Assembly: GCA_046757665.1 (NCBI GenBank)
Contig: JBHHYO010000033.1
Coordinates: forward strand, 1-28,877
Direction: 5' to 3'
Length of the DNA: 28,877 nucleotides
From: Nitrospinales bacterium
GTDB taxonomy: Bacteria > Nitrospinota > Nitrospinia > Nitrospinales > JAJDAT01
Part shown: one piece after another, positions 1,436 through 9,645 of the stretch
Layout: the number at the start of each line of letters is the position of its first letter
Position numbering within the stretch: position 1 is the stretch's first letter
Notes under the pieces: model-generated
Databases searched by the model: none
What the model was told of the DNA's origin: nothing
The model's input: only the letters and a program-made list of their open reading frames with translations
Position numbers and translations under genes: made by a program

Positions 1436-4816
<3,381 letters not shown>

Positions 4817-4845
4817 GGATCATTCCTCGATGTTCGACTGCCGCC

Positions 4846-5046
4846 TCAGCCGCCGCCGACAGCCTGGACGATTTCGATGGTGTCGCCGTCCTTGACGGGG
4901 GTGGTTTCGTATTGCGATTTGGGAACCACCTGGCAGTTTAGGGCGATGGCGAAGTGAGATGTGCGGATATCCAACTCCCGAATCAGCTCGGTCAGGGTTC
5001 GGCTGGTCAAGTTTTCGCGTTTTTTTCCGTTAATAGTTAACAACAT
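4846..5046 (-). CDS. thiS: Sulfur carrier protein ThiS
   Basis: 66 aa from ATG at 5046; ING...N..VVPK...GDTIEIVQAVGGG with C-terminal GG; lies upstream of thiG. Confidence 0.95.
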   Translation of the reverse strand: MLLTINGKKRENLTSRTLTELIRELDIRTSHFAIALNCQVVPKSQYETTPVKDGDTIEIVQAVGGG

Positions 5047-5068
5047 CAATCTTGCGGAAAACAGGGAC

Positions 5069-5103
5069 AAAAAAAGCCATATTCCGGGAACGGGAATACA
5101 GCC
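5069..5103 (-). terminator. Intrinsic terminator, expression platform of the TPP riboswitch
   Basis: Minus strand reads ggctgtattcc-loop-ggaatatggc followed by a U run, between the aptamer and thiS. Confidence 0.75.
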
Positions 5104-5119
5104 TGTGAAAAAAAAATTA

Positions 5120-5200
5120 TCGCATCCCTACGCCGGCATTACCCAGATCAGGTTCAACGGGTTGTCCAAACGGACTCTCAGCTTGCAAGCACCCCTTGTC
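5120..5200 (-). ncRNA. TPP riboswitch (THI element)
   Basis: Minus strand: AGGGGTGC..GCTGAGA..ACCCGTTGAACCTGATCTGGGTAATGCCGGCGTAGGGA, matching the TPP consensus; directly upstream of thiSGEC. Confidence 0.96.
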
Positions 5201-5210
5201 TATTTTTTTT

Positions 5211-5238
5211 AGGTTACTGCAAAACGCGCCCAAGTCAA
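5211..5238 (-). promoter_or_regulatory. Putative sigma70 promoter of the thi operon
   Basis: Minus strand TTGACT-16 nt-TAACCT just upstream of the TPP aptamer. Confidence 0.6.
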
Positions 5239-5244
5239 GAAATA

Positions 5245-5272
5245 TTGACGTTTAAAAAAAAAAGAGTATTCT
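5245..5272 (+). promoter_or_regulatory. Putative sigma70 promoter of the TPR/SH3 gene, possibly leaderless
   Basis: TTGACG-16 nt-TATTCT; ATG at 5279 is the 7th base after the -10 box; no SD. Confidence 0.55.
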
Positions 5273-5278
5273 TTGATT

Positions 5279-6523
5279 ATGAAATTAAAAACCGGCTTTC
5301 ACATTTTGTGCGTGGTTCTCGTTTTCAGTCTGATTTCCTGTGCCGGCGGCAAACAAACCGCAGGCGGCGGCGGAGGCGGATTCTTCGGCGCGGGGCTGTT
5401 CTCCGGCGGCTCCTCGGATAAAGACACTCTGTTTGAAGACCCGCCGGAAAAAATCCTTTTCTCCGACAAGGAGGTCTTCAAGGAAGCGCTGGCGTTACAC
5501 AAAAAAGGGCAAGTCCTCCCTGCAATGCAACTCTGGAAGGATTTTCTCAAGCAACAGCCCAAATCGTTCGAGGCCTTGAACAACTTGGGAATGTCGTATT
5601 ATTCCAACGACAACCTGGACGAGGCCGTTCGATCGTTCGAGGCCGCCTTGCAACTGGAACCCTCCAGTGAAAAGATCAAGAACAACCTCATGCGGACACT
5701 CCGGTTTCGCGCCACGTTGTCCAGGGAGAACAAGCAACATCACAAGGCGGTGGGCGACCTGCAACGAATGATGGCCCTGACGGCGTCCGGTAAAAAGGAA
5801 AAACTCCTGAAGGAGGTCGAGCAGGAACAGGACGCCATTTACCAGGAAGTGGAACGCCGGGACACCCTTGACGCCTACGAGAATTTTGTCCGCGAATTTC
5901 CCAACAGCATCTTCGCCGAGAAGGCGAGACAGAAAATCGGCAAACGCGCTCCAACGGCCTCGCGCAAGGAGTTCGAGCGTGGTCCGGGGTCCTTTCTCCC
6001 CTCCGGAGAGCGACAAGCCGCAGAGCCGCAGAGCCTGGCCGGCGCCGTTCCACCGCCGCAAGTGGAAGGCGACCTGGACGATGGAATCACCAGGCAGGGC
6101 GGTTTCTCCGAGCCGCTGAGTTTCTCCGAACCGATGGGCGGTCCGGGTATGGAGTCGCCGGGCGTTCCGGAACCGATGCCGGATATGGGCATGGGCGCGG
6201 GCGAGGAGGATGTATTCGCCACCCTGCCTCCGGAGTCTCCTCCGGCTGTCGAGGAATCCTTTCCCGGCGAGGATGATTTTGCTTCCGTCATGCCGTCCAC
6301 GGGCTCGCTGGAGGAAAACCCGCAACAAGTAAAAATCACCACCCGAACCTCGCCGCTGAACGTCCGCAAGGGGCCGTCCTTGAAAGCCGCCATCATCGGC
6401 AAGGTGGACAAGGGCACGGTGCACGATTTGCTGGGAGAAATCGGCGACTGGTTCCACATCGCCTATCCCGACGCCAACACCACCGGCTGGATCAGCAAAA
6501 AATACTCGCAAATAGTGGAATAG
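5279..6523 (+). CDS. Lipoprotein with TPR repeats, acidic/Pro-rich linker and C-terminal bacterial SH3 domain
   Basis: Lipobox-like LISC plus Gly run; TPR pattern ALNNLGMSYY...A...FEAALQLEP; C-terminal LNVRKGPS...IIGKV...WFHI...GWISKKY (SH3_3-like). Confidence 0.8.
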   Translation: MKLKTGFHILCVVLVFSLISCAGGKQTAGGGGGGFFGAGLFSGGSSDKDTLFEDPPEKILFSDKEVFKEALALHKKGQVLPAMQLWKDFLKQQPKSFEALNNLGMSYYSNDNLDEAVRSFEAALQLEPSSEKIKNNLMRTLRFRATLSRENKQHHKAVGDLQRMMALTASGKKEKLLKEVEQEQDAIYQEVERRDTLDAYENFVREFPNSIFAEKARQKIGKRAPTASRKEFERGPGSFLPSGERQAAEPQSLAGAVPPPQVEGDLDDGITRQGGFSEPLSFSEPMGGPGMESPGVPEPMPDMGMGAGEEDVFATLPPESPPAVEESFPGEDDFASVMPSTGSLEENPQQVKITTRTSPLNVRKGPSLKAAIIGKVDKGTVHDLLGEIGDWFHIAYPDANTTGWISKKYSQIVE

Positions 6524-6532
6524 GGGAGCGCC

Positions 6533-7297
6533 ATGACCGATCGCTCCGCGACGGCCCAGTCCGCGGCGGTGCAGTCCGCGCTGGCGGCCGCCATCGAGGC
6601 GCTCGACCGGCGCAAGCTGAAAGCCGACTTCCAGGCTCAAAACGAGTTCCTGGCGATCGACAATTTTCTTCCGCCGCCGGCGCTGGACGCCATCCGGGCC
6701 GATCTGCCGAGCCTGCTCGCCCGCATCCATAGAAACTACGTTCCCACGTACAAAAAAGGTGGCAGTGTCGGACGCCACGCCATCGACCGCCTGTCCCCGG
6801 CCATCGGCCAGGTTTACGCTCACCCGGCGCTGGTGGAATTTCTCGGCGACCTCGCCGGCGAGCCGTTGCAGGACTGCCCGGCCGACGACCCGCACACCTA
6901 CGCCCTGTACTGCTACACCGAGCCGGGCGACCATATTGGTTTTCATTACGACACCTCCTATTACCGCGGCAAGCGCTACACCGTGCTGGTGGGGCTGGTG
7001 GACGACTCCTCCTGCCGGCTGGTGTGCGAGCTGTACCGCGACGACCCGGCGCGGCAGACGCAAACCCTGTCGCTGGCCCTGAAACCCGGCGCCCTGGTGG
7101 TGTTCAACGGCGATAACCTGTACCACAAGGTCACGCCGCTGGGGCCGGGCGAAACGCGCATCGCCCTGACCATGGAGTACGTCACCGACCGGGGCATGAA
7201 CCCGGTCGCCCGGCTGGTCTCCAACATCAAGGACGCCGTCGGCTACTTCGGCTGGCGCGGCGTCTTCGCGCCCGGCAAGGCCGCCCGCAGGAAATAG
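6533..7297 (+). CDS. 2OG-Fe(II) oxygenase (BesD/HalD-like fold, HxD...H triad)
   Basis: GDHIGFHYD (HxD), PGALVVFNGDNLYHKVTPL (distal His), RIALT (2OG-binding Arg); GGGGAG RBS. Confidence 0.85.
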   Translation: MTDRSATAQSAAVQSALAAAIEALDRRKLKADFQAQNEFLAIDNFLPPPALDAIRADLPSLLARIHRNYVPTYKKGGSVGRHAIDRLSPAIGQVYAHPALVEFLGDLAGEPLQDCPADDPHTYALYCYTEPGDHIGFHYDTSYYRGKRYTVLVGLVDDSSCRLVCELYRDDPARQTQTLSLALKPGALVVFNGDNLYHKVTPLGPGETRIALTMEYVTDRGMNPVARLVSNIKDAVGYFGWRGVFAPGKAARRK

Positions 7298-7349
7298 AAC
7301 CCTGCCATCACGACCGCTCGCTCCGCCCTTGTCAAGGGAATAGGGCAAG

Positions 7350-7378
7350 TGTCACACTGAGCTTGTCGAAGTGTGACA
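7350..7378. repeat. GTCA-type REP-like hairpin
   Basis: tgtcacact-gagcttgtcga-agtgtgaca, perfect 9-bp stem. Confidence 0.65.
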
Positions 7379-7481
7379 TTGGGCCAAAAAAAATCTTTCC
7401 GCTTTCCTCTCTGTGTCCATCTGTGGTTCTTGTCTGTTGCCTCGCAACTTCCCGCGGGCGTTGCCCGCTTCCTTATTGGTA

Positions 7482-7510
7482 TTGACGCCGCCGGGTTTTT
7501 CGGCTAGCAT
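7482..7510 (+). promoter_or_regulatory. Sigma70 promoter upstream of the fluoride riboswitch
   Basis: TTGACG (7482-7487), 17-nt spacer, TAGCAT (7505-7510). Confidence 0.7.
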
Positions 7511-7526
7511 TTTTAAAATTCTTTTG

Positions 7527-7592
7527 GGAGATGGAGTTCTCCTTTCAACCAACCGCCGCCTTTTTTCTTTTTGGGGGGCTAATGACTCCTTC
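7527..7592 (+). ncRNA. Fluoride riboswitch (crcB motif)
   Basis: GGAGATGGAGTTCTCC...AACCGCC...GGCTAATGACTCCT matches the GGnGATGnnGTTCnCC / AACCGC / GCTRATGACnCCT consensus. GGAGA pairs with TCTCC and GGAGTT pairs with GACTCC (pseudoknot). Confidence 0.92.
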
Positions 7593-7688
7593 GCATGACC
7601 GTTGTTTTCCGAGGCGAAGGAGCCATCAGTTCGGGCAGACGCTCTTTGACCCGCCTTTGCGCCAACCGCCCGCGCCGGAGTTCCCCGA

Positions 7689-8888
7689 ATGGCGATCAGC
7701 CTGGCCCTCGTTATCCTTCTGGGCCTGTTTTCCGAGTATCTTTTTAGAAAAATCCGTCTGCCCGGACTGCTCGGCATGTTGCTTGTCGGGATTGTCTGCG
7801 GCCCCTATGTCCTGAACATCATCCAGCCCGGCCTGCTGGAAATTTCGGCGGATTTAAGAATGCTGACCCTGATCGTCATTCTCCTGCGGGCCGGACTGGA
7901 ACTCGAACGGGACACGCTCCACCGGGTCGGCAAGACCGCCCTCGCCATGTCCGCCGTCCCCGCCGTTTTTGAAGCCTGCGCCATCACGCTCATGGCTCCC
8001 TTGTTTTTCGATCTGACGTATCTGGAAGCGGCGATTCTCGGCACGATCCTCGCCGCCGTGTCGCCCGCCGTCGTCGTGCCACTGATGCTGAACCTGATCG
8101 GCGAGCGTCGCGGCACCCGCAAGGGCATCCCCACCCTGATCCTCAGCGCGTCGTCGGTGGACGACGTGTTCGTCATCGTCATCTTCACCATTCTTCTGGG
8201 AATCCACGCCGGCGCCGGCGACAACATTTTTCACAAACTCCTGGAGATTCCGGAATCCATCCTGCTGGGCATCATCGTCGGCGGCATCGCCGGTTATTTA
8301 CTGTGCCGGGTTTTCGAGCGCTTCAATCCCCGGGCGACGAAAATGAACCTGATGGTCATCTCCGTCGCCATTGTCCTCACCTGGCTGGAGGAAGAACTGA
8401 AAACGCAGATCGTCATGTCCGCCTTGCTGGGCGTCATGACCATTGGCTTTGTCCTTCTGGAAAGAGCCGAGACGCGGGCGCACAAAATTTCCCAGAAACT
8501 CGCCAAGGTCTGGATATTCGCCGAAATCCTGCTGTTCGTCCTGGTCGGCGCGCAGGTCAATATCCATGTCGCCTGGGAGGCGGGACTGCCGGGGGCCTTG
8601 CTGATCTTCGCGGCCCTGGCCGCCCGGAGCCTGGGCGCCTACGTCTCGCTGTGGGGCGCCGGGCTCAACGAAAAGGAAAAACTGTTCTGCGTTATTTCCT
8701 ACATTCCCAAGGCCACGGTGCAGGCGGCCATCGGCGCCATACCGCTGGAAATGGGCGTCGCCGGAGGAGAAACGATTCTCGCCCTGGCGGTGCTGTCCAT
8801 CCTGCTGACGGCTCCCCTCGGCGCGGTGGGGATTTCCTGCACCGCCAACCGCCTGCTGACGAAGGACGCCGCGAAAGAACCTTGTTGA
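7689..8888 (+). CDS. Cation:proton antiporter (CPA superfamily, SLC9B/NHA2-like)
   Basis: About 12-13 hydrophobic segments; ILLRAGL, AVSPAVVVP, ASSVDDVF (DD motif) and PKATVQAAIG motifs; GGAG SD at 7677-7680. Confidence 0.9.
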   Translation: MAISLALVILLGLFSEYLFRKIRLPGLLGMLLVGIVCGPYVLNIIQPGLLEISADLRMLTLIVILLRAGLELERDTLHRVGKTALAMSAVPAVFEACAITLMAPLFFDLTYLEAAILGTILAAVSPAVVVPLMLNLIGERRGTRKGIPTLILSASSVDDVFVIVIFTILLGIHAGAGDNIFHKLLEIPESILLGIIVGGIAGYLLCRVFERFNPRATKMNLMVISVAIVLTWLEEELKTQIVMSALLGVMTIGFVLLERAETRAHKISQKLAKVWIFAEILLFVLVGAQVNIHVAWEAGLPGALLIFAALAARSLGAYVSLWGAGLNEKEKLFCVISYIPKATVQAAIGAIPLEMGVAGGETILALAVLSILLTAPLGAVGISCTANRLLTKDAAKEPC

Positions 8889-8916
8889 ACGCGGCGGTTT
8901 GCCGTATCCTTGGCGA

Positions 8917-9645
8917 ATGAACGCGATTCTGCTGGCGGCGGGAGTGGGGCGAAGGTTGGGCGCGGGCGAGCCGAAATGCCTGTTGCCGTTCGCCGGCCAA
9001 ACCCTGCTGGCGCGCCACCTCGAAATCCTGCGCGCTTGCGGCATCGACCACGTCACGGTCGGCGTCGGCTACCAGGCCGACCAGGTGCGCGCGGCAATCG
9101 CCGACCTGGACGCCGACAGCTTCGTCACCACCGCGCTCAATCCCGATTACGAACAAGGCAGTATCCTGACCCTCCACGCCCTGCGCGAACCGCTGACCGG
9201 CGGCGGCGACGTGCTCCTCATGGACGCCGACGTCCTGTACGACCGCCGCCTCCTGCGCCGCTTGCTGGATTCCTCCCACCCCGATTGCTGTTTGCTGGAC
9301 CGCAACTTCGAGCCCGGCGACGAGCCGGTTAAACTGTGCGTGCGCGATGGCGCCCTGGTGGAATTTCGCAAGAAGGCGAACGTGCCCTGCGATTTTTGCG
9401 GTGAGTCGGTGGGATTTTTCAAACTGGCGGAAACCACCGCCCAAAAACTGGCCGCGGCAACGCAACGCTATGTGGACGACGGCAAAACCGGAGAATGTTA
9501 CGAAGAGGCCTTGCGCGACGTGTTACTTGCGTCGCGCACCTTCGGTTTTGAAGATATTACCGGCCTGCCCTGGACGGAAATCGATTTCCCGGAAGACGTC
9601 GAACGGGCGCGCCGCGATATCCTGCCCCGATTGATGGACGAATAA
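8917..9645 (+). CDS. Phosphocholine/phosphonate cytidylyltransferase-family NTP transferase (LicC/PntC-like)
   Basis: AILLAAGVGRRL...PKCLL, LLMDADVLY, GESVGFFK, WTEIDFPED motifs. Confidence 0.88.
   Translation: MNAILLAAGVGRRLGAGEPKCLLPFAGQTLLARHLEILRACGIDHVTVGVGYQADQVRAAIADLDADSFVTTALNPDYEQGSILTLHALREPLTGGGDVLLMDADVLYDRRLLRRLLDSSHPDCCLLDRNFEPGDEPVKLCVRDGALVEFRKKANVPCDFCGESVGFFKLAETTAQKLAAATQRYVDDGKTGECYEEALRDVLLASRTFGFEDITGLPWTEIDFPEDVERARRDILPRLMDE

Follow-up and report, generated by a model that had tools for sequence, protein, structure and literature searches.

Two classes of bacterial fluoride exporter have been described, Fluc/CrcB and CLC-F (Stockbridge and Wackett, 2024; PMC11139923), and a 2026 paper still names two (PMC13104614). 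Among GEBA strains, over 85% have one exporter class and about 3% have both, and species without an exporter tend to be reduced-genome symbionts (PMC11139923, the latter in section 11). For E. coli, NaF MICs of about 1 mM without crcB and 200 mM in the wild type are listed in the same review. Fluoride riboswitches control approximately 15% of Flucs and 30% of CLC-Fs, and after the exporters the next-most-common genes associated with them are Na+/H+ antiporters, for which the same source cites Baker 2012 and which it reads as helpers in pH homeostasis that counter acidification. Here, we analyze a unit of this kind in a 28,877-nucleotide (nt) stretch of DNA from a Nitrospinales bacterium (GCA_046757665.1, contig JBHHYO010000033.1; the whole stretch is referred to below as the window), in which a fluoride riboswitch aptamer precedes the gene for P0001, a cation:proton antiporter (CPA) resembling NHA2 (SLC9B2).

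The pairing of riboswitch and antiporter is itself already known. An earlier note on this DNA, made from the sequence alone, presented the protein as a candidate new fluoride-resistance transporter; it was correct that the association with Na+/H+ antiporters had been noted before (PMC11139923), so that the novelty of the pairing was overstated, whereas the idea that the antiporter substitutes for an exporter is supported by its mutual exclusivity with CrcB, described below. In the literature searched we found no report of such exclusivity for this clade, a point on which the gene lists of Baker 2012 and Breaker 2012 may bear. Our favored explanation, which could equally well prove right or wrong, is that P0001 is a fluoride-induced cation/H+ exchanger standing in for a fluoride exporter, a single-gene defense that probably works by resetting the pH gradient.

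The fluoride aptamer and the NHA2-like antiporter

The covariance model of the fluoride riboswitch (RF01734) finds a match in the window over the full length of the model (positions 1-64 of 64), at 43.5 bits where the gathering score is 34 and with an E-value of 4.2e-09, and this was the only fluoride riboswitch found when the whole genome (G000) was searched. The earlier note had placed the aptamer at 7527-7592, which corresponds to the core of this match (7518-7598). P1 lies at approximately 7526-7543 and P3 at approximately 7555-7579, the latter with a 13-nt U-rich loop insertion and one non-canonical pair flagged in the Rfam alignment. In that alignment GGGAGAUGGAGUUCUCC, the AACCGCC junction and GGCUAAUGACUCCU agree with the upper-case consensus (P1, junction and 3' tail), and the consensus nucleotides of the 3' segment GCUAAUGACUCCU are all in place. 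ACUCC in the 3' tail (~7584-7589) is complementary to GGAGU of the P1 loop, a pseudoknot that we read from the sequence, the Rfam structure line for RF01734 carrying no pseudoknot annotation. A PF00999 gene follows on the same strand, with its ATG 90 nt downstream of the aptamer, and belongs to a cargo class listed as common for this riboswitch (PMC11139923). The closest relative of the unit (genome G131, protein 81% identical) has a riboswitch scoring 52.4 bits, and the 43.5 bits of the window fall in the lower range of the scores seen in relatives.

The promoter proposed in the earlier note is present as a pattern match, the sole sigma-70-like one within 7300-9100 (0.2 expected from shuffles), and a transcript initiated there would begin approximately with the first base of the aptamer. 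Between the upstream oxygenase gene and this promoter-like site lies a perfect 9-bp inverted repeat, TGTCACACT and AGTGTGACA separated by 11 nt and followed by an A-run without a T-run. Downstream of the aptamer, folding predicts a 9-bp hairpin, formed by CUCCUUCGC (7586-7594) and GCGAAGGAG (7614-7622) with a loop of 19 nt, that dominates the ligand-free ensemble. Because its 5' arm overlaps the 3' tail of the aptamer (CUCC, 7586-7589), ligand binding and this hairpin should exclude each other. Judging from an alignment read by eye, this hairpin is also possible in G131, where A-to-G substitutions retain pairing as G-U. The leader as a whole folds no better than shuffled sequences (z -0.37). 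We surveyed 46 close-linked relatives for terminators, leaving out five loci with longer spacers, and 23 of them have, at the 3' end of the aptamer or a little beyond it, a hairpin followed by a T-run, the classical terminator arrangement, which argues for an ON switch. We infer that the copy in the window would respond to fluoride. According to the open reading frame (ORF) listing, there is no in-frame start earlier than 7689 after the TGA at 7647-7649.

P0001 matches PF00999 (Na_H_Exchanger) and no other Pfam family, with 172 bits against a cut-off of 26.2 and residues 9-383 aligned to profile positions 4-370 of 375. No NCBIfam equivalog exceeded its cut-off: TIGR00932 (CPA2) reached 58.6 against 238.3 bits, and the K+/H+ equivalogs NF003714-6 reached 63.6 against 355, 54.4 against 309 and 49.2 against 471. 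Among all PDB sequences the best match by a wide margin is mammalian NHA2/SLC9B2 (7b4l, E 1e-42, residues 23-392 of the query on 142-519), the next family being archaeal NhaP1 (E 1e-10). A Foldseek search with the AlphaFold model placed NHA2 in the top four positions (31% identity, TM ~0.72, for a model with a pLDDT of 62.6), and every listed match is a Na+/H+ antiporter of NhaA fold, with NapA at 18-20% identity. The SLC9B/NHA2-like identity suggested in the earlier note is thus borne out by both searches. Since residue 23 of P0001 aligns to residue 142 of NHA2 and the N-terminal region is missing, the likeness is one of the core only.

The key residues of P0001 are E95, D158-D159 (the DD motif), R313, and K341 within PKATVQAAIG. 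Both motifs picked out in the earlier note, DD and PKATVQAAIG, align to those of NHA2: the SPAVVVP and PKATVQAAIG segments are identical in the two proteins, and D158/D159 align with Asp277/Asp278 of the NHA2 'FDD'. R313 aligns with the arginine in 'LIRIL', which we take to be Arg431 of NHA2. Across 82 clade members, R313 and K341 are invariant (82/82 each), E95 and D158 are each kept in 81/82 and D159 in 78/82. In NHA2, Asp277 and Asp278 bind the ion and Arg431 replaces the lysine of the electrogenic NapA and NhaA; transport is electroneutral, and the protein is a Na+(Li+)/H+ exchanger that extrudes Na+ driven by H+ (PMC8850199). P0001 is probably an NHA2-like, electroneutral exchanger of monovalent cations and protons, and its conserved NHA2-type site argues for cation/H+ exchange and for an indirect mechanism of protection. 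Nothing in the P0001 sequence suggests an anion site.

Distribution of the antiporter relative to CrcB and CLC-F

The earlier note had seen no Fluc/CrcB or CLC-F gene in the window, and this holds for the whole of G000 (97.56% complete, 160 contigs). A profile search for CrcB (PF02537) gave no match, and a search with PF00654 found one CLC, on another contig. This protein reads GRHGP and GILAP, lacks all three signature motifs of CLC-F (GNNLI/GMGLI, GREGT/V and GEVTP), and is far closer to canonical CLCs (1kpl, E 2.7e-36) than to CLC-F (6d0j, E 8.4e-07). As an aside, its GRHGP stands where canonical CLCs have GREGP, so that the gating Glu is replaced by His; it is also without a GSGIP-type first motif, and GRHGP recurs in the CLC of one other genome (G057, L152).

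The search for relatives of P0001 yielded at least 597 species genomes, of which the best 80 (43-73% identity) were analyzed. Together with the other copies from the window's own phylum, these 80 represent at least 13 further NCBI phyla and include Methanobacterium. Geosporobacter subterraneus DSM 17957, Thermotalea metallivorans B2-1 and Tissierella creatinophila DSM 6911 are cultured organisms among the carriers. We scored the antiporter as present at E <= 1e-60 against P0001, and CrcB as present when PF02537 exceeded its cut-off. CrcB was detected in only 3 of the 80 best-relative genomes, and as a control of the search 11 of 14 well-known genomes were positive. Within the phylum of the window (120 genomes), CrcB is present in 0/6 genomes with the antiporter vs 75/114 without it (Fisher p 0.002), or in 0/5 vs 44/52 when high-quality genomes are considered (p 3e-4); corresponding values are 1/22 vs 119/179 in the order of G015 (201 genomes, completeness >= 90 requested; p 1.3e-8) and 5/73 vs 42/78 in the order of G048 (151 genomes; p 1.5e-10), all of these p values being overstated because related genomes are not independent. 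The six antiporter genomes of the phylum belong to five genera in four families, and in one genus (g13) G121 has the antiporter without CrcB while G122 has CrcB without the antiporter. As a negative control we used the other CPA of G000 (661 aa), which occurs in 100/120 phylum genomes, in 70/75 of those with CrcB and 30/45 of those without. It shows no exclusivity with CrcB, unlike the NHA2-like antiporter, which is patchy (6/120).

CLC-F is similarly scarce. No CLC of any kind was found in 30 of the 80 best-relative genomes, and a six-frame motif scan of 89 loci (the CLC stretches of the 80 genomes, those of five other carriers in the phylum, and the CLC of G000) revealed the CLC-F-like combination GKEGV plus GEVIP in one gene each of G078 and G080 only, and the strict signature in none. 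Most of the scanned CLCs are ~600 aa long with GHGVP/GREGP/GIFAP, which from their length we take to mean the CBS-domain type. The earlier note had proposed asking whether host genomes lack crcB and eriC-F, and the answer is strongly positive (CrcB in 3/80, CLC-F-like genes in 2/80). We also considered that the antiporter had replaced crcB in situ, and this found no support: when the ORFs in the first 20 kb of the window (100 aa or longer) were compared by tblastn with 16-kb crcB neighborhoods of G092, G093, G095 and G122, no match was obtained at E 1e-10. No riboswitch was found at the crcB genes of these four genomes.

Linkage to the riboswitch was mapped by running RF01734 on the 80 whole genomes and placing the matches by coordinate, with contig identity deduced from matching coordinates, and Rfam was then run on the 29 loci that first appeared unlinked. 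A fluoride riboswitch lies upstream on the same strand in 52 of the 80 (one of them at 33.6 bits, and one separated from the antiporter by ~1.95 kb that include a dynamin-like GTPase gene), and in 41/80 the linked riboswitch is the only match over cut-off in the genome. No Na+ or Li+ riboswitch was found upstream of the 29 apparently unlinked loci, which yielded only the fluoride riboswitch of L044 and two tRNAs. Two variations among the Desulfobacterota were observed along the way: in two loci a dynamin-family GTPase gene lies between riboswitch and antiporter (Table 1), and many of the antiporters are 485-530 aa long, with a ~100-aa C-terminal extension that has no Pfam match.

A FastTree phylogeny of 82 proteins (81 labeled rows, 52 linked and 29 unlinked; L025, L040 and L080, which lack a clean ORF, and L174, where the motif filter found no ORF, were omitted) did not recover the riboswitch-linked proteins as a sub-clade, contrary to what the earlier note had envisaged. 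Linkage (52/81 labeled rows) is instead scattered over the whole NHA2-like clade, and at least 13 changes of linkage are forced by the starred branches. The protein tree also cuts across taxonomy, with Methanobacterium inside Bacillota forms, and P0001 groups with its phylum-mate G131, Nitrospirota and a Magnetococcales copy. Pfam searches of 60 neighboring ORFs, four intervening genes and six long antiporter forms from related loci identified no conserved neighbor; therefore the unit appears to be self-sufficient. It looks like a self-contained, mobile riboswitch-plus-gene cassette.

The same riboswitch has been recruited by a second CPA clade. RF01734 exceeds its cut-off in 8/120 phylum genomes, and the three other riboswitches of the phylum that were inspected all precede members of a different, weakly NapA-like PF00999 clade without significant BLASTP similarity to P0001. 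At the position of the NapA 'DD' these proteins have TN, TD or ND, and at least one form is without both ion-binding aspartates. In G088, crcB follows the second-clade CPA in the same operon, behind the riboswitch; in one family of the phylum (f9) the riboswitch is present in 5/8 genomes and CrcB in 1/8. Recruitment of an unrelated CPA clade by the same riboswitch suggests that what was selected is the shared cation/H+ exchange and not an anion function.

A possible mechanism and its rivals

A mechanism by which the antiporter could take the place of an exporter can be outlined as follows. As cytoplasmic fluoride rises, the aptamer would bind F- and hold its 3' tail; the hairpin at 7586-7622 then could not form and the antiporter would be expressed, with control exerted at the level of transcription or translation. 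In G000 and most genomes of the clade, the antiporter would replace Fluc/CrcB and CLC-F and would not be an accessory to them. Without an exporter, internal fluoride should be set by equilibration of HF, such that [F-]in/[F-]out = 10^(pHin-pHout). An exchanger taking up H+ in return for Na+ or K+ would shrink the inside-alkaline pH gradient, the proton-motive force then being carried as membrane potential, and the smaller gradient would remove the force that concentrates fluoride, with no need for fluoride transport. A wider claim is that bacteria and archaea possess, in this clade, a third type of transporter that confers fluoride resistance by itself, that it takes the place of Fluc and CLC-F in several hundred species or more, often as a mobile cassette, and that it acts through collapse of the pH gradient or, more boldly, carriage of F-. 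We lean slightly against this claim in its full breadth, and regard it as a serious possibility.

Several observations weigh against the antiporter as a stand-in for an exporter. The direction of exchange is not readable from the sequence, and the published view is the opposite of the one outlined above (PMC11139923). Our literature search found no experiment on P0001 or on any other member of the clade, and the AlphaFold model (built with 24 homologues) is of modest confidence (pLDDT 62.6, pTM 0.65). No fluoride riboswitch was found within 4 kb of the antiporter in 28 of the 80 best relatives and in four of the five other phylum copies, one of which is at a contig end. The hairpin in the window is not followed by a U-run (3 T in the next 9 bases), and when the aptamer is locked in folding, GGAG stays mostly paired, with no clear ligand-dependent freeing of the ribosome site. 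Antiporter and CrcB co-occur in G054, G073, G076, G347, G475, G505, G528 and G534, and in two of the five overlap genomes from the order of G048 (G475 and G528) the two genes are ~5 kb apart on one contig. Further, motifs were the only criterion for CLC-F, metagenome bins make up most of the genome set, the completeness of the 80 is not known, and genomes with this antiporter could hold an unrecognized exporter. A separate observation concerns G073, where a DUF190 gene (PF02641) lies directly 3' of the antiporter and the CrcB match is weak (36.3 bits). DUF190 is otherwise found beside crcB.

The published interpretation of riboswitch-linked antiporters is that of an accessory, which pumps H+ out against Na+ or K+ and so offsets the acid load brought in by HF (PMC11139923, Fig. 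2 legend and pH section); the lack of exporters would then stem from habitat, from incomplete bins or from an unrecognized exporter. The canonical cation site of P0001 and its clade suits such a role, and antiporters can clearly be accessories, because exporter and antiporter are paired both in the crcB operon of G088 and in C. difficile CD0656-7, where a riboswitch drives an operon of CLC-F and an NhaP-type antiporter (PMC11477304), an arrangement that would also count against substitution. However, an accessory should travel with exporters, and this clade is instead depleted in CrcB genomes in four separate samples, a depletion that the 661-aa housekeeping CPA does not show. Acid relief in particular would predict co-occurrence with Fluc, because HF entry combined with F- exit should amount to a net import of protons, and the acidification-relief mechanism offered in the earlier note thus seems to fit poorly with the exclusivity. 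By the weak-acid equilibrium, a higher cytoplasmic pH in a cell without an exporter would moreover be expected to raise F- trapping. We consider an accessory role unlikely in this clade, if still worth keeping in view.

It could also be that the protein itself carries fluoride out, coupled to H+ or to a cation, as a third exporter class on an NhaA-fold scaffold. Anion carriers do occur within the wider CPA/AT fold, and Cl- transport has been reported for an SLC9B protein of Drosophila. The antiporter and CrcB exclude each other much as Fluc and CLC-F do, only ~3% of strains carrying both of the latter, and the linkage of 52/80 antiporters to the riboswitch exceeds the ~15% and ~30% given for Flucs and CLC-Fs (PMC11139923). 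On the other hand, P0001 keeps the acidic ion-binding pair and its partners found in NHA2, for which Na+(Li+)/H+ exchange is proven (PMC8850199), its sequence gives no hint of an anion site, and the unrelated CPA clade under the same riboswitch points to a property that CPAs share. Direct F- export, the other mechanism put forward in the earlier note, is disfavored by the conserved cation site and the second clade, and we hold it to be improbable.

Alternatively, fluoride might block primary Na+ or H+ pumps, with the induced antiporter serving as a back-up that keeps Na+ out. Many of the hosts are anaerobes (Clostridia, Desulfobacterota, Thermotogota, Methanobacterium), which rely on Na+ pumps and membrane pyrophosphatases. 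Phosphoryl-transfer enzymes are inhibited by fluoride (PMC11139923) and NHA2 uses H+ to extrude Na+ (PMC8850199), both of which would fit; nevertheless, the lack of the gene in CrcB genomes would be left unexplained, beyond a lower need, and we give this explanation little credence. It is very hard to believe that the sequence resembling a riboswitch matches by chance or is a defunct remnant in front of a housekeeping gene. Its score is at the low end among relatives and its expression platform is atypical, but the match is full-length (E 4.2e-09), on the correct strand and in the correct position behind a promoter-like site, the arrangement recurs in 52/80 relatives and with 52.4 bits in G131, and the gene is patchy (6/120), unlike the housekeeping CPA (100/120).

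For the antiporter as a stand-in, the comparative result turns the association reported in 2012 into a sharp hypothesis. Free-living lineages of 13 or more NCBI phyla, in addition to the window's own, carry a fluoride-switched antiporter and are without both known exporters. If the gene alone were to confer tolerance, the role of riboswitch-linked Na+/H+ antiporters, open since 2012, would be answered, and a means of resistance independent of fluoride transport would be added to those described. It would also provide a simple new part for engineering fluoride-tolerant strains to be used in organofluorine work.

Locus features and comparison with known systems

The features of the locus and of related loci are collected in Table 1. 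The MobA-like gene begins 31 nt after the antiporter stop with no terminator-like site in between, and is possibly co-transcribed; a role in the fluoride function is improbable, because the neighbors sampled in related loci are varied and include no conserved partner of this kind. Immediately 5' of the fluoride unit lies a gene with a match to HalD and a weak one to the BesD lysine halogenase model; its H-Y-D triad is of the hydroxylase type and not that of a halogenase. The position of this gene beside a fluoride switch is probably coincidental. Elsewhere in the window, a thiamine pyrophosphate (TPP) riboswitch precedes a thiG-thiE-thiC operon, an ordinary arrangement.

Table 1. Coordinates of features in the window and in related loci (positions without a locus prefix are those of the window).
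Feature	Position	Strand	Basis or remark
Sigma-70-like promoter, TTGACG-17 nt-TAGCAT	7482..7510	+	Pattern match only
Fluoride riboswitch aptamer (crcB motif, RF01734)	7518..7598	+	Rfam covariance model
Competing hairpin (predicted expression platform)	7586..7622	+	Free-ensemble folding, pair probabilities 0.98-1.0
Ribosome-binding region: GGAG 7677-7680, 8 nt, ATG 7689	7675..7691	+	Read from sequence
NHA2/SLC9B-like cation:proton antiporter P0001, 399 aa, NhaA fold	7689..8888	+	PF00999
MobA-like nucleotidyltransferase	8920..9645	+	PF12804, E 6.2e-18
Inverted repeat	7350-7378	+	Perfect, 9 bp
HalD-like gene	6533-7297	+	PF23169, E 3.7e-15
TPP riboswitch	5108-5206	-	73.3 bits
Thiamine operon genes	4019-4816, 3343-4026, 1436-3346	-	
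CLC of G000 (contig C21)	L002:1414-2742	-	PF00654
Second-clade CPA, G196	L183:1339-2478	-	PF00999
Second-clade CPA, G192	L185:356-1606	-	PF00999
Second-clade CPA, G088	L186:944-2131	-	PF00999
Dynamin-family GTPase gene, Desulfobacterota	L044:2099-3940	+	
Dynamin-family GTPase gene, Desulfobacterota	L031:3322-3975	+	
Long-form antiporters (examples)	L012, L013, L019, each 4001-5482	+	
DUF190 gene, G073	L077:5151-5528	+	PF02641

Among known systems, the antiporter genes of the type reported in Baker 2012 (PMC11139923) are alike in having the same riboswitch class in the 5' leader of a PF00999 gene, from which fluoride would be expected to induce expression; the window and most clade members differ from those units, as there described, in that the antiporter is the only cargo and the genome is without CrcB and CLC-F. 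In the C. difficile operon (PMC11477304), the antiporter follows a CLC-F gene. Fluc/CrcB and CLC-F are commonly riboswitch-controlled, patchy and mutually exclusive, and P0001 apparently fills the same genomic niche, although it has no sequence or fold relationship to either. NapA/NhaA/KefC-type CPA2 antiporters share the NhaA fold and the DD motif, but their similarity to P0001 is weak and P0001 has Arg in place of the Lys proton carrier. NHA2/SLC9B2 (7b4l, 7p1i) is the best match in both sequence and fold, with the same DD motif and Arg instead of Lys as the basic partner. It differs from P0001 in its length (537 vs 399 aa) and in its long N-terminal region with the domain-swapped helix TM-1 of the 14-TM architecture, absent from P0001, which is a prokaryotic and riboswitch-controlled protein.

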